Source of the DNA: Trueperaceae bacterium
GTDB taxonomy: Bacteria > Deinococcota > Deinococci > Deinococcales > Trueperaceae
NCBI GenBank assembly: GCA_034521635.1
Contig: JAXHMC010000031.1
Location: forward strand, 62,677-126,676
DNA: 64,000 nt
Reading direction: 5' to 3'
The notes beneath the pieces were generated by a model, which had not been told where the DNA came from, did not search any database, and saw only the letters and a program-made list of their open reading frames with translations. Positions 3,839 to 50,099 of the stretch are shown piece by piece (the first letter of the stretch is position 1; every line of letters begins with the position of its first letter). The position numbers and the translations under genes are program-made.

Positions 3839-4636
3839 TTAATCCTGAAGGGCGAAGCGGATCTGGAGCGAGACGCTTACGGCGAGCTGACCGCTTTCGA
3901 CCGGCACGTCCGCCATCATCATGGCTTCGGCGCGGAAGCTCGGCATCGGGCCGCCGCCGCCGCTGGTCGCGGTAATGGTCTGGGCGGGGCCGAGGCTCGA
4001 GCCCACCAACATCGCCAACTGTTCCGCCTTGGCCCGCGCGTCTTCGACCGCGAGCGCCCGCGCCTCTTCTTCTAGCGCCGCCGCGTCGGCGAAGGTGTAG
4101 TTAAGCGCGTTCACCGCGTTCGCGCCCGCCTCGATCGCCCGGCTTAGCACCGCGCCGACCTGTTCGGTGTCGCGCACCGTCACGCGCAGCGTGTTGTCGA
4201 CGCGGTAGCTGCTGCTGCTCGGTCGGCTGCCCGAACCGTCGTAGCGCTCCTCGCGAAACAGATTGAAGTTGGTGGTCTGCAGGTCGGCCCGCTCGATACC
4301 GAGGTCGACGAGGGCGTCGATCACCGCGCGCATCTGCTCGTTCGCCGCCTCGACCGCAGCCCCCGGATCGTCGTTAAGGACGCTCACCCCGAGGTCGACC
4401 CGGGCGATCTGCGGGGCGGCGTAGACCGTTCCGGTACCGTCGACCGTCACGCTGCGCTCGGCACTCTCCTGCGCGAACGCGGCGCCGAGCGTCACCCCGA
4501 CTATTGCGACGCCGACGAGTACGTGGCGCACGAGCCTAAACGTCGCTGCTGTCTTGCCTGTGGCTGTTACTGTGGTTGTCATACGGATCTTAGCTCCTTG
4601 TTTCGACGAATATGTGCTGACGAATGGCTGACGCAA
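3839..4636 (-). CDS. SIMPL/DUF541-domain periplasmic protein (26-kDa periplasmic immunogenic protein family)
   Basis: N-terminal TM/signal segment. Overall SIMPL-domain pattern, with C-terminal ...SGQLAVSVSLQIRFAL. Confidence 0.7.
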   Translation of the reverse strand: MRQPFVSTYSSKQGAKIRMTTTVTATGKTAATFRLVRHVLVGVAIVGVTLGAAFAQESAERSVTVDGTGTVYAAPQIARVDLGVSVLNDDPGAAVEAANEQMRAVIDALVDLGIERADLQTTNFNLFREERYDGSGSRPSSSSYRVDNTLRVTVRDTEQVGAVLSRAIEAGANAVNALNYTFADAAALEEEARALAVEDARAKAEQLAMLVGSSLGPAQTITATSGGGGPMPSFRAEAMMMADVPVESGQLAVSVSLQIRFALQD

Positions 4637-4841
4637 GAGGTTTCGACGACCTTGCCGACCGCTCGGTGTACCGGAAACACGTACCGGGAAATGTGTATCG
4701 AACAGTGTCCGCTAGCGAAAGCGACTGGGAAAGTGCGTCGGTGTCGGAGCTAAGCGTGCGCGCGCGCCAGATGAGAACAATAAGACGACGGTAGGGGATC
4801 GTTTAGACACGAGACTTAGACACGCGACTTAGACACATGAC

Positions 4842-4871
4842 AAAAAAGCGCCGGCCACGGTCGACCGGCGC
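4842..4871 (-). terminator. Intrinsic terminator downstream of the DinB-family gene
   Basis: GC stem GCGCCGG/CCGGCGC (4848-4854 / 4865-4871) with a 10-nt loop. On the minus strand it is followed by a U-run (plus-strand AAAAAA at 4842-4847). It lies 22 nt after the stop of the 4893..5459 gene. Confidence 0.5.
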
Positions 4872-4892
4872 GATTGCAGATGTCGGCGGAGC

Positions 4893-5459
4893 CTATTTGG
4901 CGGCGATAGCGTCTAGCACCCGCCGTGCCTGCCAGAGGTGTCGCCGTTCGTGGGCGAGCACCAGCGAAAACGCTTCGTAGAGATCGAGGCGTAGCCAGCG
5001 GGTGAGGGGCGAGTGCAGCGTGATGCGGTTTAGGTCGAGGCCGTCGGCCTTCGCGAGCCGCTCGTGTAGCGCCGCTTGCAGATCGTCGAACTCGCGCCGA
5101 ATCTCGTCCGGGTCGAGGTCGGGTGCGGGTGTCCAGCGGCCCGGCGCACCGACGCGCATCCGCACCGGCGGCTCGGTGAGCCGGATAAAGGTGCCGCCGA
5201 TAAGCCCGTAGCGAAACGGCCCCGACCCGCAGATGTCTTGTTCGTGGCCGCGTGCGGTCGCCTTGTCGATCTCGGCGAGATAGTCGTGCCCGGTCACGTT
5301 AAGGTGGGTGAGGCACTCGCTCACCGACCACTGCCCCGGTGCCGGTCGCTCTAAAAACTCGGCGTCCGAGAGGGGAGCGATCAGGGCTCGAGCCTCGTCC
5401 CAAATCTCGTTTAGCTGCCGCGCGAGCTGCTCGGTCGTCGTCGTCGCGATCACCGTCAC
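4893..5459 (-). CDS. DinB/YfiT-like (DinB_2) metal-dependent hydrolase family protein
   Basis: WSVSECLTHL...HDYL and C-terminal LAHERRHLWQARRVL, matching the His-triad pattern of the DinB_2 family. Confidence 0.65.
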   Translation of the reverse strand: MTVIATTTTEQLARQLNEIWDEARALIAPLSDAEFLERPAPGQWSVSECLTHLNVTGHDYLAEIDKATARGHEQDICGSGPFRYGLIGGTFIRLTEPPVRMRVGAPGRWTPAPDLDPDEIRREFDDLQAALHERLAKADGLDLNRITLHSPLTRWLRLDLYEAFSLVLAHERRHLWQARRVLDAIAAK

Positions 5460-7364: not shown

Positions 7365-10358
<2,994 letters not shown>

Positions 10359-10475: not shown

Positions 10476-11372
10476 CTACCCCTCGGTAAGCGTTTGAAGC
10501 GTGACTCCTTCGGGCAAGTCGCTCGGCACCGTTACGGTGTAGTCACTAAACGCACGCGGCGGGGCGTTTCCGTCTTTTAGATCGACGGTAACCTGGTCAA
10601 AAAGCTTGTGGGCGGGCGCGTTGCCTAGCTTGCTGTTGTGCGAAAACACGTAGAGTCCTCGGCACGCCGTTAGACCCCGTGTTGCCGAGCGGTCGAGATC
10701 CCACATCTGCTGTAGCGACTGCCAGAAAAGTGCAAGGTCGTCGCCGTCAAAGCCGGTGTCTTCGCCAAAGGTCGGCACGAAGAAGCCGTATGCTCGGTAG
10801 AGGCCGTACGGAACATACGCCTTGCGGCCCATCGTGCCAACACTCTGCCCGCTCTCGTCATCGTCGCGCTTCTCGTCTTTTTTCGTGATCGCCATCCGCG
10901 TAATCGCGATGTCAAGACCTAAGATCGGGCTGATCGAACGAGCGAAGGTCATCTGGATAGGGCCACGAACCTGGCCGCAGTTGACCTCAGTGGTCATGAG
11001 CGCGCCAAAGGTGCGGATGTCGTAAAAGTTGTTGCACATCCACTGACGCACCTTTTTGACGTCGTCGGCGGGCTGCTTGGTGCCTTTGGGTTTGATGCCC
11101 TCGGCTTCGTAGGCGCGCCGGTTGCGCTCGTTTAGCACGGCGCCTTGCTGGACGTAAATCTTGTAGCGCTCTTCGGTGCCTTTGAACGCGTCTACAAAGT
11201 TGCGAACCTTGCGCTTCAGCGAGACGTCGGTGACGATGCCGTGGCGCGTTTCGGGGTCGACGCGGGGCAAGTTGCCTGCGTCGGGGTCGCCGTTGGGGTT
11301 GCCGTCGGTGACGTCAAAGAGCAACACGAAGTCGTGGCGGAGGGTCGGGTCGAGGTGCTTTTCGGTAGCCAT
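10476..11372 (-). CDS. cas7: Type I-C Cas7 (Csd2/DevR family) Cascade backbone subunit
   Basis: Hallmark VTDGNPNGDPDAGN motif near the N-terminus. 298 aa. Sits immediately upstream of the array. Confidence 0.9.
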   Translation of the reverse strand: MATEKHLDPTLRHDFVLLFDVTDGNPNGDPDAGNLPRVDPETRHGIVTDVSLKRKVRNFVDAFKGTEERYKIYVQQGAVLNERNRRAYEAEGIKPKGTKQPADDVKKVRQWMCNNFYDIRTFGALMTTEVNCGQVRGPIQMTFARSISPILGLDIAITRMAITKKDEKRDDDESGQSVGTMGRKAYVPYGLYRAYGFFVPTFGEDTGFDGDDLALFWQSLQQMWDLDRSATRGLTACRGLYVFSHNSKLGNAPAHKLFDQVTVDLKDGNAPPRAFSDYTVTVPSDLPEGVTLQTLTEG

Positions 11373-13195
11373 TACTGTTCTCCTTGTGTGGCGAGTTCGC
11401 CGTCGGAATCCGATTCGGTCTGTTCGCGGGCGTCTTTAGCGCGTTTGCGCTCCATAATGCCTTCCCAAAAGTCGGCCTTTTCGTGGTAGAAGCCGAGGCT
11501 AAACAGCGCCTGGCTCTTAACGTCGAAGGTCGCGGGGACGTCGCTGACGTGGCTGAGAATCTCTTGCAGACGCTTGTCGGCGTTTCTAAAAGCGCCCTCA
11601 CCCTTTTCCTTGCGGATTTTGCTGAGGTGATTGGTGGCACCTTGCATCAACCGGCCAAAGACGGACGCAGGGGCGGTACTAAACGAGCCGTAGAAGCGGT
11701 CGATGACGCCTGCTTTGACGTTGCCGAGGGCGTTACTCTGAATCGCGTCGAGCGCAGCGAGCAGCCGTCCTAAGTGATACGCGGTTTCGGGGCGGTCACG
11801 AACAAGTTTTTCCATACCGGTGTAGTCCTCTCCTGATCGAGCGTTAGATAGAAGCACCATCTTGGTCAGCGTCGCTCGGGGTCGTGTGACCGTTTGTGAT
11901 GCGCGGTTGCGAGCGACGAGTTGAGACAGAAACGCCCACGGCAGCGGCGTTCCTTTTAGAGCGTGAGCGAGAATCGCTACAGGGACGCTCTTAACCATCT
12001 CCTTTGTGGCGTCGCGGTAAAGACTCGCGGCGAGTGCGTAGATGCCGAAGGGTTCACCAGGGTTGCCCTCCCAATCGACAAGCGTTTGGCTAGCGAAGTA
12101 GCGCTCTAGGTGACGGATAAGCTCAGCGATCGTGAGCTGAATCTGATCGCGAACCACCACGCGGCTACCGCTTGCCGACAGACTTGCGGCGAAAAAGTCG
12201 CTCTGGCGGTCTTTGGCACCTCCGAAATAGCGCCCCACCCACGCAGACGACAAGAGTTTGCGGGCTTGTTCGGGATACGTGCTGCTTTTGTGGGGTACGT
12301 CGCGGCCCTCGATCAGGTCGAGTAGGGCGTTGCCTGGGTCGTTAAGTAGAGGCGCAACGCTCGGTACGTCTTCGTCTTTGGTCCAGAAGACATAGACGAC
12401 GTCACCGATACGCAGGTGAGTGTCTTTTTCGGTAAGGAGGGTGTTTAGGGCGTTGGCGTACTTCTCGGCGTATTCGCGCTTGATCGGGGCGATCTGCGAG
12501 GCTTTAAGACCGTAGGACTCGTAGGCGCTTTCGTTCGCAGAGATGATGTTCATCCCGCTTGGCTGGCCGTTTGGGATGCGGGTGCCTTTAATTTTGACCG
12601 GTTCGCGGTCCATCACGACGGTGCGCTCACCAGAGAGCAGACACTCCGCTTCTAAAGCTCCCTTTTTAGCTTTTTGGACCTCTTTGTTGCGCTCTTTCCA
12701 AAAAGACTTCACTTTGGGCAACTCAAAAGGCAGTTCACCGTCGACGACGAAGGAAACGTTGTCTTCGGGCTTAAAGTCATCCGGCAGGTCCATCTTAGAC
12801 GGTTCGTGCGTTTCTAAGAACTTAGCGACGGCCTGCACCTGGGACAGACCGGTGTCTTTGGCGCACGTCTCGACGAGGTCTTTGTAGGCTTGATGGCGTT
12901 TAGCAACCTGTTCAGGCTTAGCGCCTTCGCGTTCAATACCCAGAGTGTACTCTGCATTGTCGGCAAAGAGCTTCGGACGGATGGTCTGGCCCGAACGCAT
13001 CACGCTCGGAGCCTGAAAGATTTTGGCGCGGTCGTTCTCGCCGCTCGTGCTTTCGGGCATACCCTGCAAATTTCCCGAACCGTCTAACGGGATAAGCCAG
13101 TGAATCGTGACCGGTTGATAGCCTGTCGGCAGCGTGTCGCCTTCCTGCTCTCGTTCGCGCTGCTTAGCGTAATCGACAAGTGCTTTTAAAAGCAT
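11372..13195 (-). CDS. cas8c: Type I-C Cas8c (Csd1) large subunit
   Basis: 607-aa protein between cas5 and cas7 in the canonical I-C order. Overlaps its neighbours by 1-4 nt (operon). Confidence 0.8.
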   Translation of the reverse strand: MLLKALVDYAKQREREQEGDTLPTGYQPVTIHWLIPLDGSGNLQGMPESTSGENDRAKIFQAPSVMRSGQTIRPKLFADNAEYTLGIEREGAKPEQVAKRHQAYKDLVETCAKDTGLSQVQAVAKFLETHEPSKMDLPDDFKPEDNVSFVVDGELPFELPKVKSFWKERNKEVQKAKKGALEAECLLSGERTVVMDREPVKIKGTRIPNGQPSGMNIISANESAYESYGLKASQIAPIKREYAEKYANALNTLLTEKDTHLRIGDVVYVFWTKDEDVPSVAPLLNDPGNALLDLIEGRDVPHKSSTYPEQARKLLSSAWVGRYFGGAKDRQSDFFAASLSASGSRVVVRDQIQLTIAELIRHLERYFASQTLVDWEGNPGEPFGIYALAASLYRDATKEMVKSVPVAILAHALKGTPLPWAFLSQLVARNRASQTVTRPRATLTKMVLLSNARSGEDYTGMEKLVRDRPETAYHLGRLLAALDAIQSNALGNVKAGVIDRFYGSFSTAPASVFGRLMQGATNHLSKIRKEKGEGAFRNADKRLQEILSHVSDVPATFDVKSQALFSLGFYHEKADFWEGIMERKRAKDAREQTESDSDGELATQGEQ

Positions 13196-13905
13196 CAGCG
13201 GACCTTCTCGTAGTAATCAGGCACGTAGAGAATCCCTTGTTCAAGACGAGCATCGAAGAAGACCGGTTCTGCCTTACCCTCGACCCATTCGCCCCCGTCA
13301 GGACCGTGTTGCCGATACGTCACACCGCCCTTGCTTTTAGGCGTGTACTTCATGTCAAAAAGCATTCGTCCAAGCTCATCGGTGTGGTCGATAGCTTGTT
13401 CGTGGCCGTCTGGTGGCGCAAAGTAGGCGCTAAACTCGCGCGTACCGAGGTAGGGGCGGCTAAACGCCTGCCCCTTACTAACGCGACGATTAAAGATCGT
13501 TTCGTACTTGTTCAGAACCGCTCCCTTCGGTTCCTTGTCTGTCGCGGCGTGCTTTTTGAGCACAATTTCAGCCCGAATAAGATACGCAACGTCGCGAAGA
13601 ATCAGGCTGTAGCGTTGGGTGCGGTCTGTCTCGGCGTCATAAAGCCCTTCGCCGTCTTTCGCCCACCCTTTTACCGTACGCGCCGATACGGTGCTTCTAA
13701 CCTCGTTTCGCACCAGCCCAAAGTGGCGAATCGGATTTAAAATCCAGATCTCGCGCACCTTCCAATAAAACTCGGGCTTCCAGGCAATCGCTTCTAGCAC
13801 ACCGCGAGCCGCAGAAGGCGTCATCACGTCGTAGCTTACGCGCTCGACCTTGTGTTCTGGTCGCGTAAAGCAGGCGTAGTCACCCCAAACTTTGACTTCA
13901 AGCAA
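13195..13905 (-). CDS. cas5: Type I-C Cas5 (Cas5d; pre-crRNA endoribonuclease)
   Basis: N-terminus MLEVKVWGDYACFTRPEHKVERVSYDVMTPSAARGVLEAIAWKPEF is the characteristic Cas5d start. Confidence 0.9.
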   Translation of the reverse strand: MLEVKVWGDYACFTRPEHKVERVSYDVMTPSAARGVLEAIAWKPEFYWKVREIWILNPIRHFGLVRNEVRSTVSARTVKGWAKDGEGLYDAETDRTQRYSLILRDVAYLIRAEIVLKKHAATDKEPKGAVLNKYETIFNRRVSKGQAFSRPYLGTREFSAYFAPPDGHEQAIDHTDELGRMLFDMKYTPKSKGGVTYRQHGPDGGEWVEGKAEPVFFDARLEQGILYVPDYYEKVR

Positions 13906-13923: not shown

Positions 13924-16161
13924 TTAAGACGGCTCGGACTCGACAATGCCGAGCTGCGCGTCGTAACTTCCGGTCCACTCCAACAGGTCCAAATCGTTGC
14001 GTTTCAGCAGTCCTTTAGCAAGATACTTATCGATCTTGTTGCTGTAGAGCGTCACCGTGTAGGGCTGCAACGCTCGCTGCGTGTATCCGTTAAGACCCCG
14101 AGACAAAATGCGAGCAACCGCCTCCGGGTCGTACTGCGGTACGAGAACGCCCTCGGTGTCCTGATCGATCATCTGAAACCGAGCGGCAACCTCAGGAAAG
14201 TCGAGCTTGTCACTTAACGCCCGAATCTCCTTTGCGTCGGTCGTGATGCGCCCGTAAAGCCGTGAAAAGTAGCGCTCGAACGTAACAGGGTCGTTTAGGT
14301 CGATGTCACCCTTCGAGAGAAGGTTTCTCGCGATGTCGCGTCCGCTCCGGTACGCACCAGGCGGAACCGTATCGTCTTCGGGCGCAAAAACCACTACGCG
14401 CCCCTGCTCTAAGCGGCTGTTTCGGTTGCAGCGTCCGGCGGCCTGCACGATGCTGTCGAGCGGCCCCAGTGCTCGCAAAACAAGCGGAAAGTCGAGGTCG
14501 ACGCCCGCCTCGATAAGCTGCGTCGACACCACCCGACAGGGTGTACCTGTATCAAGGTGCTCGCGAATATCCCGAATGACTTTAAGACGGTGTGCCGGAC
14601 ACATATCGGTCGAAAGATGGAGCGCCTGGCGGTCTTTTTCGCGGAGTGAACGGTAGAGATCGCGTGCTTGCGCCTTAGTGTTGACGATACAGAGTGCTTG
14701 TTTGTCCTCTAACATCTCGTCGGCAACAGCAGACCATAGCCAGCGCTCTTTGATCTGCGTGTCGTAACGCACCCGCGTAAGTACCTGAAAGTAGTGTGCG
14801 GGGTCGGGGGCGATCTCGGTGACCTCGCGGGTGATGTTGAGTTTACGAAAGAGCGGGGCTAGAGCAGGTTGGGTTGCGGTGCAGAAGACGAGGCTCGAGC
14901 CGTAACGCTCGTTCGTTAGTTCGTTTACAGCGTCAATAATCGGTTCGATGAGCGGCCCGGACAGCGTTTGTGCTTCGTCAAGAACAATCACGGCCTGGGT
15001 GAGGTTGTGCAGCTTGCGGACTTTGCTGGTGCGGTTAGAAAAAAGGCTCTCGAAGAGCTGCACCGTAGTGGTGACGATAACGGGGGCGTCCCAGTTTTCG
15101 GTCGCTAACTTGTGCCAACTGTTACCGACTTCGTGCGCGTCGTCAGCTTGGGTAGGTTGCAAGCTAGAGTGATGCTCTAAAACGTTAGCCGCTCCAAGAG
15201 CTTCGCGGTAGATCGCGGCGGTCTGTTGCGTGATGCTGGTGTAGGGGAGTGCAACCACCACGCGCCGAAGGTTGTGAAGGCGGGCGTGCTCTAAAGCAAA
15301 CGCCAAACTAGCGAGGGTCTTGCCGCCTCCGGTCGGAATCGTCATCTTAAACAAGCCGGGAGGAGTTTGGGCACGCTCTAGCGCGACGTCGAAGAAGGTG
15401 TTGCGGGCTCGAGCCAACACCGTGTCGTCGCGGCGGAGTGATGCTTGAAATGTTTTTAGCTCGCTCAACAGCGTTGCAGGTGTTTCCTGGTCGCGATAAC
15501 GCTGCGAGTGGCGCTCTGGATCGGCGTGTTTTTCAGTGTCAAGCCGATCAGCGTCTACAAGGGCGCTTAGCAGCATACGGATGAAGAAAGCCCGTTGACG
15601 TGGGTGCTGAAATGTTGGTAGCCCGGTGGCCTCTGCCTGATCAACAAGTGCCGCGAGTTGCTGACCCTGCTGACGTATGAGGTGGTTGACATCAGCATCT
15701 TCGGAAAGCTCTTTAAGGCGTTCATCGAGTGCGGCGAGGCCTAAAAGTTTACCGTGGTGGTTAAGCACGACCCAGGCTAATTCGCCTCCTGCACCGTCAC
15801 TGTCCTTTAGCTTTGGATATCGGTACTCGTAGAGAAGGTTAGCAATGCGGGCGCCATACTTAGCGTGTGGAGCACTGCCCGCACGAGGTGGCGTTGTCTC
15901 GTTAAGAGCGGCACGGTAGCACCGAAAGAGATAGTCCTGAAAAGCAGGATCGTACTTTCCAAAGTCGTGAAGATATCCGGCTAATGCTCCTAGCGGTCCT
16001 GCTGAAAAGGTGCTTGCAAACGTTCGGGTACGCTGGGCAACCTCGTCGAGATGATCTTCCAAAAGATGCCAGTGATGGTTGGCGTCTGTTGGTGTGTGGG
16101 CTACTGGCTCGTTTGGCAGAGGGACGGAGGGCTGATTAGGCGACATAGGTTTGACTCGCAT
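13924..16161 (-). CDS. cas3: Cas3 HD-nuclease/helicase
   Basis: N-terminal HD domain (HLLEDHL...YLHDFGKY), then SF2 helicase motifs (GGGKT Walker A; VIVLDEAQ DEAD/H box). 745 aa. Confidence 0.9.
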   Translation of the reverse strand: MRVKPMSPNQPSVPLPNEPVAHTPTDANHHWHLLEDHLDEVAQRTRTFASTFSAGPLGALAGYLHDFGKYDPAFQDYLFRCYRAALNETTPPRAGSAPHAKYGARIANLLYEYRYPKLKDSDGAGGELAWVVLNHHGKLLGLAALDERLKELSEDADVNHLIRQQGQQLAALVDQAEATGLPTFQHPRQRAFFIRMLLSALVDADRLDTEKHADPERHSQRYRDQETPATLLSELKTFQASLRRDDTVLARARNTFFDVALERAQTPPGLFKMTIPTGGGKTLASLAFALEHARLHNLRRVVVALPYTSITQQTAAIYREALGAANVLEHHSSLQPTQADDAHEVGNSWHKLATENWDAPVIVTTTVQLFESLFSNRTSKVRKLHNLTQAVIVLDEAQTLSGPLIEPIIDAVNELTNERYGSSLVFCTATQPALAPLFRKLNITREVTEIAPDPAHYFQVLTRVRYDTQIKERWLWSAVADEMLEDKQALCIVNTKAQARDLYRSLREKDRQALHLSTDMCPAHRLKVIRDIREHLDTGTPCRVVSTQLIEAGVDLDFPLVLRALGPLDSIVQAAGRCNRNSRLEQGRVVVFAPEDDTVPPGAYRSGRDIARNLLSKGDIDLNDPVTFERYFSRLYGRITTDAKEIRALSDKLDFPEVAARFQMIDQDTEGVLVPQYDPEAVARILSRGLNGYTQRALQPYTVTLYSNKIDKYLAKGLLKRNDLDLLEWTGSYDAQLGIVESEPS

Positions 16162-16455
16162 CTGAAAGGCAGTTCCAAAACGTTCGCATGGTAGTCTTGT
16201 TCACCAGCATCAACTCCGTTTTTAGCCTTAGCCGAAAGCCGAAGCCTCGTCTGGCTTATTAAACCATAAATGAGTTACTGGTTCATCCAAACGAACCGTG
16301 CACTAACTATCGCGGCGTTTCAAAAGCCGTCTGCGCCAAATTTAGTCATAAACAGAGTGCTCTAACCGCACCCACGGACGTCTACAGACAAGCCTTCATG
16401 CTATATTTTGAAAAGACTTCAAGCCTTTGGAATGTGTTCTCAGGAGAGAGTGACG

Positions 16456-16656
16456 ATGGCGATTCAAAAACGTAGTGTCGGCTCTGCAATGCGCGAGTTG
16501 CGGCTCGAGAAGGTCTGCCATTCTGTGCCGACTCGTATTCCAGACAGAATGGTGAACAGTATTCGCCAATCTATGCGGGTAGAAGGTTACGAGGTCTCTG
16601 CCGAAGAGACCCGCTCGGCAATCCAGCAGACCCTAGACCGCAGACAGCAGCGCTAA
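16456..16656 (+). CDS. VbhA/PhdA-like Fic antitoxin (small ORF carrying the inhibitory S-x-x-x-E-G motif)
   Basis: 66-aa ORF starting at the ATG at 16456, preceded by the RBS-like AGGAGAGAG. Contains SMRVEG, i.e. S-x-x-x-E-G. It sits immediately upstream of the Fic remnant, as in Class I Fic modules. The ORF track extends it upstream to 16408. Confidence 0.5.
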   Translation: MAIQKRSVGSAMRELRLEKVCHSVPTRIPDRMVNSIRQSMRVEGYEVSAEETRSAIQQTLDRRQQR

Positions 16657-16667
16657 CAGCTCTGTAG

Positions 16668-17355
16668 GTGTCAAAGCACATAGATAAAACCCAATCCGCC
16701 AGACAAACGCAGCCCATCGAGACTCGTAAAGGGCTGCTCAAAGCTTACGAGGATATAAAAAAATGGCTGACTCTAGGAGAGTCGCAAGGTCGGCTATGGA
16801 TCTACGAGAAGGCTAACAGCTACTGGAAAGATAACCCCGTGCGATTACCTCCGGCCCCTAACGACGAGGATATCTACGAACTCCATAGAGTTATGTTTTC
16901 GGCTCTCTTTGACTGGGCGGGTCAAACCAGACAAAAAGATGTAGGACCGGGCGGTCGGGTATTTGTTCGCTACTACGAGGTTCCGGTGCAGCTAAAGTAC
17001 CGCTTTGAAAACCTGCAAGCGCGTGTGTCGGGTTTAGCTATGAAGATGTCCGGTTAAATATCGTCAGAATCATTAGAAGGCGCACCGCGATCAACATCCA
17101 TCCTTTGAAATTACGAACGGTCGTACGGGGCGCGTTTTGGATCATTATATTTTGTGGCACACGCTCGGCCTTATCGGGGCTGATTACGATAGTACGCCCC
17201 AGATCGAGCACTTCCCGGACGAACGTTACGAAAAGCAGTACTCGGACGCCCTGAAAGCGGCGGATGATCACGACTTGGGGCCACTACAAGAATTCTACAG
17301 AGAGCGTATCGAAGAAGCGCTCGAAAGTGTCGGTATATCCGGTCCGGTAGAGTGA
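16668..17355 (+). pseudogene. Fic (filamentation induced by cAMP / AMPylase) domain gene, frameshifted and with a degenerate core motif
   Basis: Frame-0 ORF 16668-17057 contains the Fic N-terminal signature ...LHRVMFSALFDWAGQTRQKDV (the y-x-WAG-x-x-R element). The catalytic-loop region lies in a different frame: 17077-17355 gives KAHRDQHPSFEITNGRTGRVLDHYILWH..YSDALKAADDHDLGPLQEF. Stops at 17055 and 17074 separate the two parts. The core HPSFEITNGRTGR deviates from canonical HPFx(D/E)GNGR. Confidence 0.6.
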
Positions 17356-17565
17356 AGTGCGTCCGCATGTGTCTAGCCCTCGGGGCAGCGACGCGCTTGT
17401 GACGATCTAGCCTTTATTCGTCTCGGCGCGGATCTTAGCGGGTGCTTCTCCTGATGCGTTAAGCCTGAAGGCTCGAGCCCCACCAACCCTCGTCATCCGA
17501 GAGAATCACCGCCTACACCGCTAGCGACGCTATTTGTGGCTTAGAAAGGACGCGAAACACCCTAC

Positions 17566-18186
17566 ATGACCACGAACGTAATCTCTTTAGACCCGAACGA
17601 CGTGCGCGCCGACCACCCCTTTAGCCACCCCGACTACAGCCGCCGAGACGGTGAGGTGATGCGGGACATGATCGGGCAGGTGGGGGAGGGGCTCGAGCCC
17701 TCCCGTGAAGCGTCCCTCTATCGCCAAGACCCGGCGGACGAAGGCTGGCAGTACCGTCTGATCGTGCCGAACGCCGACGTCTTGCGCCAGCGCCGAGAGT
17801 TTGAAGTGGTGGGCTTTTTCGGCCAGCGGCAGACCGATACAGACGCGGACCCCCGACTGCTCGACGCGCTAGACGACATTCTGATCGCCGAACTGCCGAC
17901 ACATCCGGGCATCGTGTGCTACTTTTCGAAGGCGCTCGGCTCCGGTGACTACTGCAACCTCGTCCTGTTTGTCGACCGGGCGGCCAAAGAGCTGTGGGCG
18001 ACGAGTGAAGCATACGCCTTCGCGACGCGGCGCTTGGCCCCCGAACACTACGCGTCGGTCCGTATCCACAACGGGTGGTTGCGGCAGGGCTTGGCGAATC
18101 CGGACATGTTCGTGATGACCTGTAGCAAATACTTCGCCTATCGGCCCGGCTTCTGGCAGGCGCTAAGGCGTTACGAGAATCGTTAG
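17566..18186 (+). CDS. Hypothetical protein (206 aa)
   Basis: Clean ORF with no recognisable motif. One in-frame GLEPS palindrome insertion. Confidence 0.4.
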   Translation: MTTNVISLDPNDVRADHPFSHPDYSRRDGEVMRDMIGQVGEGLEPSREASLYRQDPADEGWQYRLIVPNADVLRQRREFEVVGFFGQRQTDTDADPRLLDALDDILIAELPTHPGIVCYFSKALGSGDYCNLVLFVDRAAKELWATSEAYAFATRRLAPEHYASVRIHNGWLRQGLANPDMFVMTCSKYFAYRPGFWQALRRYENR

Positions 18187-47798: not shown

Positions 47799-48015
47799 GA
47801 TGGACCTCCTCTAAAGCAGCAAAAGACGGTCTGCCGTAAGAGGCTACTGCACTCTAGCTGCCTTTGATGGCTCGAGCCTACACCTTCAAATGCTCTGTAG
47901 ACACGGGAAGAATGTCCCCCGACCACCAGACAGGACGGAGCGGGCTGCCCGTCTGACAAACATAAAAAACCCCCTCACATGTTCGCGAGGGGGATAGAGA
48001 TTGACAGGGTTTAGC

Positions 48016-49632
48016 TTACTGTGTTGTAAAGCTTCGCGCGCCCGACGTTCCGAAGCGGATGTTGTCGGCATTGGAAGGGCCGCCAGAAAAGCTAGGCTCA
48101 GCCGTCTCGTCGACACTCGCGAAGGGCGCAAGGCCTAAGACTCGCCAGTCGTACGACGTCCCACTCGGCAGATTGAACCCCGAGATGTTGGCGAGATCCG
48201 GAATGGTCGTCTGCGTATCGTCGGTGATGACGAAGAAGTCAGGTCCGTTCGGCGACGTAAAATTGACAATGTAGACCCCGCTATTGAACGCTGACCATTC
48301 GAACGACGAACTCGTATCAATACCGCTAGCAGCATCTGCCGGAAGGCTTAGTTCGGGCGCCGCAAAGAGGTCGACGCTAACGCCGCTGGCGTCGATTGCT
48401 TCGGTAGTAATGGTAAACGTGCTGAGTGAGCCACTACTACCCGTCGCCGCTGCGCCGGCACCCACTAAGAATCGTGCGGTCGCACCAGAGACATCCGGTG
48501 TGGTGTAGGTGAAACTGTTGTTTTGCGAAGGATCGCTGACTACCTGGATGGTTGCCTGATCGCCGAAATTAACCTCGAGATCCTTTCCTAGTAGACTGTA
48601 AGATCCGGAAGTCGCGCTAGGAAGCGATGTGATTGTCCCGTCGAAGTTAGTGTTGGCTATACCAGCCAGGGCAATATCGGTAGTTGGACTCGAGAAGCTG
48701 CCGCCATCGGTAAGGGTGATCGACTCCGTACCGTATCCTGTATAGTCAGTCGGGAAGCCACTAGCATTATTCGTCCACTGCAAAGCGTGGAGCGTGCCCA
48801 TCGTGCTGTTGGGCCCGAACCAGTCAACTGTAGTCAACCCTAGAGTTGGGTAGTTGCCGGTTGTGGAGTTGACGGAGAACGTTGCGCTAGCTTCCGGAGA
48901 GCCGAACACTACCTCCGTCTCGCCGGGAGTTGGCTCTGGAAACTGTCCTCCCGAACCTGCCGAAACCGTTCCCTGGACGGCTGCCGTATTTCCGCTTCCC
49001 GCAGAAGGAGCACTTCCGATAAATAAAACTATAGGGTCGTTACGCGTCAGACCTCTGTACACGACGACTTCGTTAGGTGGGCCGCTTACTGCGACGGCAA
49101 GGTCGTAGGGTGTCGTGACGTTGCTAAAGCTAAAGTTGCCGCTCGCGTCAGTTGTGGTGCTAGCCCCGCCTAAAATGGCTACGGGCGTATTGGCTACCGG
49201 CTGCTCGTTAGTGTCGACGACCGTTCCCGACACGTTTACCGTCGCCGAGGTAACCTCTAGCGTAAAGGTCGCGGTCTGGGTCGACGACCCCGACGTTCCT
49301 TCGACGGTGATCGTATTGGTTCCGGTCGCCGCACTCGCGCTGACGTTGACGGTCAGGGTGCTACTGCCACCGCCACCGGTCACCGGATCGGTTCCGAAAC
49401 TCGTGCTCACGTCGCTCGGAACTCCAGTCGTACTTAGGTTGACGTCGCTGCTAAAGCCGCCGCTGCCGCTAACGTTGACGGTTAGTGTGTCCGAAGCACC
49501 CTGCGTGACGGTGAGTGTGTTGGTGCTTAGCGATAAACTAAAGCTACCACCGCCACCGCCGCCGTTCGGGCAGGCCGTGAGGATAAATAGGCCGATAAAG
49601 AGTGAAAATAGAAGTGAAAGATGTCTACGCAC
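48016..49632 (-). CDS. Ser/Thr/Gly-rich surface lipoprotein (hypothetical)
   Basis: Lipoprotein-type signal with lipobox (RRHLSLLFSLFIGLFILTAC-PNGGGGGGS) if it starts at the GTG at 49632; the ORF track extends it to 49752. Long low-complexity S/T/G-rich body. Local GC is lower than the genome average. Confidence 0.5.
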   Translation of the reverse strand: MRRHLSLLFSLFIGLFILTACPNGGGGGGSFSLSLSTNTLTVTQGASDTLTVNVSGSGGFSSDVNLSTTGVPSDVSTSFGTDPVTGGGGSSTLTVNVSASAATGTNTITVEGTSGSSTQTATFTLEVTSATVNVSGTVVDTNEQPVANTPVAILGGASTTTDASGNFSFSNVTTPYDLAVAVSGPPNEVVVYRGLTRNDPIVLFIGSAPSAGSGNTAAVQGTVSAGSGGQFPEPTPGETEVVFGSPEASATFSVNSTTGNYPTLGLTTVDWFGPNSTMGTLHALQWTNNASGFPTDYTGYGTESITLTDGGSFSSPTTDIALAGIANTNFDGTITSLPSATSGSYSLLGKDLEVNFGDQATIQVVSDPSQNNSFTYTTPDVSGATARFLVGAGAAATGSSGSLSTFTITTEAIDASGVSVDLFAAPELSLPADAASGIDTSSSFEWSAFNSGVYIVNFTSPNGPDFFVITDDTQTTIPDLANISGFNLPSGTSYDWRVLGLAPFASVDETAEPSFSGGPSNADNIRFGTSGARSFTTQ

Positions 49633-50099
49633 AGGTGTTGCCCCCTGGTAAGTTGTGCACGGACGTGGAGAAGCGAACGAAAGACGTACAGTACGCACGC
49701 TTCGCTTGGTGCTTGCTCCGTAGAAAGGCATAAAACGCTGCGTTTTTAACATTTGCTCCGATGTTTCCGAGCACCGCGTGTCGTGCTTTTGTCGTCGCGT
49801 GTGACGCTGTGTTTGACAAAGCTGTCACGCCGTGCAAAAACAGACGGATTCAAACGCTACCAACGTTTTTTTTACCTATTTCTTAGGATAGGATGAGAGC
49901 TATATATTTTCTGTAGGTTGGCTCGTAATTGTTTTTAGAAAGAGGACTTTTGAAAGCTTACTTAAATCATAGGTTTGTCGGGGTGCAGCTCTAGCAACCG
50001 TGCGCTTCCGTACACACGCACTGCTTCCGACTCGGCATTCTGTAGAGACGGGTTAAAAAACTTTACTGTCCTTACGACCCGCAAGGAGGCATCTATATT

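Follow-up and report, generated by a model that had tools for sequence, protein, structure and literature searches.

The 64-kb window analysed here is part of a metagenome-assembled genome (MAG) of a Trueperaceae bacterium, and all coordinates refer to this stretch. It carries a cassette of approximately 970 bp (16384–17355, plus strand), composed of a promoter region, an intact antitoxin gene and a putative toxin pseudogene of the Fic type. The cassette is separated from the start of cas3 by 222 nt. The limits of the cassette were set by DNA homology to L035, a 1143-nt contig from a stromatolite metagenome. A previous sequence-only reading had described the locus as a remnant class-I Fic module with an intact antitoxin and a disrupted toxin, and this description was supported by the profile matches, the gene architecture and the lesions reported below.

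The antitoxin gene (16456–16656, plus strand) encodes 66 aa (NCBI MDZ7704717.1, “hypothetical protein”) and starts with an ATG that follows an AGGAG sequence at 16442–16446, 9 nt upstream. A longer version of the open reading frame (ORF), 16408–16656, would encode 82 aa from a TTG; from the sequence, the true start is more probably the ATG at 16456. Both the ORF and its ribosome-binding site are undamaged in the window, and its stop codon lies 11 nt before the GTG start of the Fic gene. As claimed previously, the small upstream ORF contains an SMRVEG motif: S39-M-R-V-E43-G44 is encoded at 16570–16587 (plus strand) and has the form (S/T)xxxE(G/N) that defines the inhibitory helix (PMC3667792). 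In an alignment of seven clade antitoxins, whose members are 23–34% identical to the window protein, S39, E43 and G44 are the sole invariant residues besides Met1. SMRVEG stands in register with ASQRLEG of VbhA, both in the Pfam VbhA alignment and in hhalign comparison with a verified VbhA sequence. No helix-turn-helix (HTH) domain was matched in the 66-aa protein by Pfam or NCBIfam, and the protein search returned a single close relative, the L035 copy at 95% identity.

The toxin gene is divided between reading frames. Its N-terminal fragment (16668–17057, plus strand, frame 1; 129 aa; NCBI MDZ7704718.1, “hypothetical”) runs from the GTG start to a TAA at 17055–17057 and contains LFDWAGQTRQKDV, with W83 of the conserved FDWAG element at 16914–16916; the earlier identification of a Fic N-terminal WAG element is therefore correct. 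Frame 2 is closed by a TAG at 17074–17076, and between TAA 17055 and TAG 17074 frame 3 alone is open. Past TAG 17074, frame 2 reads KAHRDQHPSFEITNGRTGRVLDHY... through to the TGA at 17353–17355, and the C-terminal remnant within it (17104–17355, plus strand; 84 codons) has no internal lesions. Three-frame reading thus bears out the earlier statement that the catalytic loop lies in another frame than the N-terminal part, with stops at 17055 and 17074 between them. The remnant of the signature motif (17095–17133, plus strand) reads HPSFEITNGRTGR in frame 2. Since L035 keeps FEDTNGRTGR with an Asp codon GAC, the ancestral window motif was probably HPFEDTNGRTGR, and the extra Ser of “HPSF” arises because frame 2 is read across a lesion.

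A family profile built from 22 full-length homologues matched both toxin fragments far above chance: profile positions 3–115 in frame 1 (118 bits) and positions 136–212 in frame 2 (95 bits). The two matches are separated by 49 nt that span 20 profile positions, so that approximately 11 nt are missing. The stops in frames 1 and 2 require at least two frame-breaking lesions. Every path with a single shift from frame 1 to frame 2 retains a stop, TAG 17074, and scores 8–9 bits under two-shift paths; the exact shift points are unplaceable, as many two-shift paths score 230–232 bits. DNA and codon alignment to L011 and L012, two Trueperaceae MAG loci, pointed to four short losses (1, 4, 5 and 1 nt) within 17028–17110, which suggests that the lesion zone probably holds four deletions. 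This zone (17030–17112, plus strand) covers the last part of helix alpha-4 together with the catalytic loop, and passes from frame 1 to frame 3 to frame 2, possibly with more switches.

The damage is confined. Among family columns conserved at 90% or more, the window keeps 49 of 56, and five of the seven deviations fall in residues 138–149, comprising the AHHRFQW stretch and the catalytic-loop Asp; outside the lesion zone, 49 of 51 conserved positions are retained. The conserved AHHRFQW residues are missing from all frames. At the catalytic-loop Asp codon, the window has TTT GAA ATT ACG (FEIT) and L035 has TTT GAA GAC ACG (FEDT), so that all three bases differ. The approximately 45 other long genes of the window are uninterrupted, and no other gene looks split. 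The sequence evidence indicates that the toxin gene is a real pseudogene, and its inactivation would be recent because the remaining gene is almost undamaged. The alternative raised previously, a single-nucleotide sequencing error in a live Fic gene, is excluded: no single indel bridges both stops, approximately 11 nt are missing, and the Asp codon is substituted at all three bases.

The assignment to the Fic family was supported at several levels. In the search proposed in the sequence-only reading, a frame-corrected reconstruction of 229 aa matched Pfam Fic PF02661 and, at 27.5 bits (E 5.9e-6), passed the gathering cut-off of 24, while neither uncorrected toxin fragment alone gave a Pfam Fic match. 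The protein database search returned 32 full-length homologues of 212–280 aa at 35–44% identity, all with PF02661. In the profile search of solved structures, Fic-1/AntF (8WT0; E 2.6e-12), VbhT (E 1.6e-8) and FICD were matched. The AlphaFold model of an intact homologue, P0002, which stands in for the broken window gene, has a Fic fold with pLDDT 93.6, and Foldseek assigned this model a probability of 1.00 to FICD, Bep, Fic-1, EcFicT and VbhT, with template modelling (TM) scores of 0.55–0.72.

The signature HPFxDTNGRTGR is found in all intact members of the clade, in 23 of 24 genome loci, and in all strong matches among 1.84 billion representatives. The previous reading had noted that the acidic and Gly positions of the core were altered in the window. 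Thr at the Gly position is clade-normal rather than degenerate, as HPFxDTNGRTGR occurs throughout the clade; in contrast, Ile for the invariant Asp is, as judged from the sequences compared, peculiar to the window copy. The canonical AMPylation signature is HxFx(D/E)GNGRxxR (PMC3667792). The clade deviates from this strict form, and the window copy adds Ile for Asp and a motif split by frameshifts. Fic proteins with a deviating signature are suspected of other activities (PMC3667792), and AMPylation by the Thr clade is an analogy, because its signature is not canonical.

The clade is small, with 31 clusters at E<=1e-30 in an exhaustive search of the 1.84 billion representatives, and a sharp fall in bit score separates it from the nearest other Fic groups, with HPFxDFNGR or HPFxNGNGR. 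A literature search found no Fic-related paper on DTNGR. On sequence grounds, these proteins form an unnamed, uncharacterised, Thr-signature class-I-type Fic clade with members in Trueperaceae and Myxococcota MAGs. The best matches in the genome scan were the Trueperaceae loci L011 and L012, with 49–51% identity. No intact orthologue closer than these was found: apart from the window's own fragment, the protein search gave at most 44% identity, and the metagenome scan returned one distant partial match. In L011, the Fic ORF (3914–5116; 400 aa) has a C-terminal extension of approximately 150 aa that is not present in L012 (252 aa), followed by an HNH-like ORF; the extension could be a fusion or a read-through into the downstream gene. 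The nearest neighbouring Fic groups (P0069–P0084) have non-canonical signatures too. In one of them a bulky Phe occupies the Gly position (HPFKDFNGR[IV]GR), and in P0079 and P0080 a signature of this type lies at the C-terminus of proteins of 1273–1434 aa. Another of these groups reads HPFxNGNGR, as in mobile mystery protein B.

An upstream small ORF with QS[LM]x[VA]EGY was found in all seven metagenome loci and in 21 of 22 evaluable genome loci (28/29). These ORFs encode 59–92 aa and end from 52 nt before to 9 nt after the Fic start. Within Fic chains, 4 of 33 family members show sporadic matches to an inhibitory motif, none of them at a conserved position, which is compatible with class I. 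The inhibitory motif is therefore carried by a separate small protein directly upstream of fic, the arrangement that defines class I; the upstream ORF with invariant S, E and G, together with the lack of a conserved motif in the Fic chains, establishes this architecture for the clade.

Broken toxins are common in this clade. Of 24 species-representative genome loci, five (L028–L032) have a broken Fic gene: the frame is shifted at the NGRTGR stretch in L028 and L029 and close to the WAG element in L030, L031 combines an internal deletion with a stop codon, and L032 has an in-frame deletion, its upstream region being cut off by the contig end. Intact antitoxin ORFs are kept in L028–L031. In L038, the whole catalytic half of the toxin is lost and the antitoxin reads SMRVED, and in P0051, P0055, P0058 and P0062 the frame is lost no more than a few codons from AHHRF/IHPF. 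These comparisons indicate that toxin loss recurs independently in the clade.

The L035 contig provided a second copy of the cassette. Its positions 491–789 are 97.3% identical to window 16384–16682 and its positions 826–1077 are 94.4% identical to window 17104–17355 (BLASTN), so that homology starts at 16384 and stops exactly at the toxin stop codon. Window 16683–17103 (approximately 420 nt) is absent from L035 and replaced by 36 nt that include an in-frame TAA; toxin codons ~6 to 145 are lost, and the antitoxin gene is undamaged. Of the 12 codons that differ within the 84-codon C-terminal remnant common to both copies, 9 do so synonymously (2–3 non-synonymously), giving dN/dS of 0.05–0.10 (P=3.6e-5 against neutrality) with dS of ~0.2. 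These values mean that most of the divergence arose under selection on the toxin gene. The window and L035 inactivations therefore look recent and independent from their sequences, unless the C-terminal piece itself is still selected.

The antitoxin differs from that of L035 by 3 non-synonymous and 2 synonymous changes (Nei–Gojobori path counting), or by 3 and 1 differing codons, and is 100% identical from residue 19 on, motif included. Silent differences are unevenly spread: the antitoxin has a dS of 0.045 and the toxin remnant one of ~0.2, and 2 mismatches occur in the 72 nt upstream. The difference between antitoxin and toxin remnant has a Fisher p of 0.058, which falls to 0.004 once the non-coding stretch upstream is counted in, a hint that the cassette has a mosaic or recombinant history or that the antitoxin mRNA is under constraint.

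Base composition and flanking sequences point to a foreign origin. The GC content of the cassette (16384–17355) is 50.8%, whereas that of the window is 62.5% and that of the cas operon 56.6%, and the L035 copy has different flanks; the comparison indicates that the cassette is horizontally acquired. The L035 left flank (444–489) matches window 17488–17533 with 89% identity, and the right flank (1103–1143) matches window 17806–17846 with 83% identity, corresponding to codons 81–94 of the 206-aa ORF that lies directly downstream of the window cassette (17566–18186, plus strand; GC 62.6%, genome-typical; no Pfam or PADLOC match). As both L035 flanks map downstream of the window cassette, the cassette of L035 lies on the other side of this segment, where it abuts a 5'-truncated, disrupted homologue of the 206-aa ORF. 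A local hop could account for this arrangement, as could a rearrangement or chimerism of the contig. Around the window cassette, direct repeats and att-like sites did not exceed the shuffle background, and no integron attC-type boundary (GTTRRRY core site) was seen in the junction sequences, which were inspected by eye without a dedicated search. Within 16100–17700, terminators were at chance level and no Rfam RNA family was matched. The phage collection contained no relatives of the cassette, and plasmid relatives were of the distant mobile-mystery type only. The neighbours of distant homologues include integrases, HTH proteins, PIN toxins, SSB and ArdC, which are typical of mobile, toxin–antitoxin-rich islands.

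On its other side, the cassette adjoins a type I-C CRISPR-Cas locus: cas3 (13924–16161, minus strand), with Pfam Cas3 HD and helicase domains, and the effector genes cas5 (Cas5d; 13195–13905), cas8c (Csd1; 11372–13195) and cas7 (10476–11372), likewise assigned by Pfam, followed by a CRISPR array at 7365–10358 with 42–43 repeats of 37 nt. No cas4, cas1 or cas2 lies between cas7 (ending at 10476) and the array (ending at 10358), so that no adaptation module is present here. The cas operon is not part of the cassette, given the different flanks in L035. The proposal of a decaying low-GC island beside cas3 holds for the cassette, with its 50.8% GC and broken toxin, but not for its neighbours, as the effector genes cas3, cas5, cas8c and cas7 are all intact. 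Matches of the CRISPR spacers to the cassette and the rest of the window were chance matches of 11–18 nt. On the reverse strand, the CRISPR repeat ends ...ATTGAAAC. Two spacers are duplicated: 7546–7580 equals 8271–8305 with one mismatch, and 8487–8518 is identical to 9494–9525. A second low-GC stretch at 48000–50000 (53–56% against ~63% GC), with a 578-aa ORF at 48016–49752 (minus strand), may be another acquired island.

Taken together, we consider it highly probable that the locus is a horizontally acquired, two-gene class-I-type Fic toxin–antitoxin cassette in which the toxin is dead and the antitoxin intact. This is ordinary toxin–antitoxin decay; the locus adds a decayed example to an established type and does not represent a novel kind of system. 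By analogy with characterised relatives, the intact Fic enzyme would move a nucleotide-derived group, most likely AMP from ATP, onto a cellular target and cause growth arrest; the targets of FicT, VbhT and Fic-1 are GyrB and ParE. The upstream small protein would bind the enzyme, and E43 of S-M-R-V-E-G would replace the ATP gamma-phosphate and block catalysis. Loss of the toxin would be tolerated or favoured, while a cell that lost the antitoxin first would die, which would explain why the antitoxin outlives the toxin. The surviving antitoxin may be a neutral relic, or may protect against incoming related toxins.

Several observations weigh against this interpretation. All lesions lie within ~85 nt of an otherwise pristine gene, unlike the prediction of random neutral decay, and a consensus scan of 16100–17700 found no sigma-70 promoter. 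Statistically, the sequences do not establish that the antitoxin and VbhA are homologous. The description of the antitoxin as VbhA-like held for its motif and architecture; membership of Pfam VbhA (PF18495) did not stand, as the suggested model search gave 14.8–15.9 bits where 25.9 are required (E 0.013–0.029) and covered the motif helix alone. One of the seven clade antitoxins matched this model at all, hhalign against VbhA gave a probability of 2.1% (E 0.023), and the antitoxin profile had no match among solved structures, with no VbhA chain. Purifying selection on the orphan antitoxin is likewise not demonstrated by the substitutions. The chemistry and target of the clade are assumed from relatives, as its signature, with Thr for Gly, departs from the canonical AMPylation motif.

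The most immediate alternative is that the toxin gene is alive and that its frameshifts are errors of sequencing or assembly, such as a local misassembly or a collapsed strain consensus. The source is a MAG, the inferred indels lie beside short homopolymers (GGG/TTT, AAA), the other parts of the gene are almost perfectly conserved with the C-terminal part under purifying selection, and a misassembly limited to 17030–17112, formally possible, is a further point against our interpretation. However, at least two and probably four indels with approximately 11 missing nt would have to fall within 85 nt, the AHHRFQW residues are missing in every frame, and a triple-base difference from a near-identical copy at the Asp codon is not expected of indel-type errors. 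No other gene in the 64 kb is split, an independent assembly from another sample (L035) also has a dead toxin, and broken toxins are common in the clade; we regard a live toxin as very unlikely. Still less credible, to the point of being barely conceivable, is a programmed split, in which ribosomal frameshifting or transcriptional slippage yields low levels of full-length toxin. In favour of this idea, several clade members are frame-broken near AHHRF/IHPF, but at least 17 of 24 genome loci have one continuous ORF, the break points vary among loci, and no Rfam element is present; the window would need at least two shifts through three frames, and its toxin gene is missing conserved residues and encodes Ile where the catalytic-loop Asp should stand.

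Two other explanations give the surviving parts a role. The antitoxin, perhaps with the C-terminal 72–84 Fic codons, may be selected as an anti-addiction or immunity factor that counters related Fic toxins entering the cell, or as a regulator. The low dN/dS of the C-terminal part between two broken copies would fit, as would a 72-codon ORF (17137–17355, from TTG) that is open in L035 too, the intact antitoxins of both copies with their shared sequence from residue 19, and the lower silent divergence of the antitoxin and promoter region than of the toxin remnant. Two recent independent inactivations explain the low dN/dS equally well, however, and neither a start codon nor a ribosome-binding site before the C-terminal ORF is convincing. 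Among the other broken relatives, L038 is missing the C-terminal half and others break elsewhere, the antitoxin substitutions are mostly non-synonymous, and there is no second Fic gene within the window; such a functional remnant seems to us improbable. A broader proposal, which we rate as unlikely, starts from the signature of the clade, which departs from the AMPylation consensus although a glutamate-bearing inhibitor is still its partner: the clade may use nucleotide-dependent chemistry other than that of FicT and VbhT, or act on another target, and the orphan antitoxin, possibly with the selectively conserved C-terminal fragment, may be kept as an immunity factor against arriving cassettes of its own clade. 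If this were true, the clustering of lesions at the catalytic loop in several lineages would reflect repeated, strong counter-selection of catalytic activity in particular.

For the window itself, a decayed cassette is of small importance, being the textbook outcome in which the toxin decays and the antitoxin persists. Both pieces are publicly annotated as “hypothetical protein”. Beyond the window its value is modest: the locus flags a small uncharacterised class-I-type Fic clade. This clade provides a natural record of repeated, independent toxin loss with retention of the antitoxin, which is itself indirect evidence that the enzymes of the clade are truly toxic. The sharp homology borders and the different position in a relative also illustrate the movement of such modules in and around defence loci.

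The closest parallel in gene order is VbhT/VbhA of Bartonella schoenbuchensis (class I; PDB 3SHG, 3ZC7), in which a small antitoxin gene also lies directly upstream of the Fic gene. The SQRLEG of VbhA and the SMRVEG of the clade are both of the form (S/T)xxxE(G/N), and neither VbhT nor the clade Fic chain has an internal inhibitory motif. VbhT shares the Fic fold, by profile and with a TM of 0.60–0.68 in Foldseek, but differs in its signature (HPFxEGNGR versus HPFxDTNGRTGR), and identity is 13–15%. Unlike VbhT, the clade has no BID or secretion domain, and the window copy is a pseudogene.

Fic-1/AntF of Pseudomonas bijieensis 2P24 (PDB 8WT0) was the best solved-structure match by profile. In FicTA modules of this type, catalysis is blocked by the conserved Glu of a small inhibitory-helix protein whose gene lies just upstream (PMC13327609). 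Fic-1/AntF and EcFicT/EcFicA (PDB 5JFF) are of similar size (~200 aa), with a target-normalised TM (TMt) of 0.70–0.72 in Foldseek and identity of 17–20%. They have the canonical GNG signature where the clade has Thr, and experiments have demonstrated both their AMPylation of GyrB (Y111) and a deAMPylase activity of the complex, whereas the Thr clade is known from sequence.

The mobile mystery proteins A and B (TIGR02612/TIGR02613), found for example on Agrobacterium Ti plasmids, also form a two-gene mobile module with Fic second. TIGR02613 was the best NCBIfam match, covering profile positions 51–185 with 56.3 bits, far below the membership cut-off of 124.4, and tblastn gave matches in 211 plasmids at 29% identity over 93% of the query. 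Its signature is HPFPNGNGR instead of HPFxDTNGRTGR, and its partner, mobile mystery A, is a 153-aa HTH protein, in contrast to the 60–70-aa peptides of the clade. Mobile mystery A of Agrobacterium pTi (L037 752–1213; 153 aa) carries T-M-R-L-E-A near its C-terminus; given the resemblance to the inhibitory-helix motif, it may inhibit its Fic partner likewise. The anti-phage candidates PADLOC PDC-S04 (E 3.6e-16) and SoFic (E 3.2e-6) gave domain-level matches only. SoFic belongs to class II, with an internal inhibitory helix, unlike the clade. The position of the cassette beside CRISPR-Cas fits a defence-island setting.

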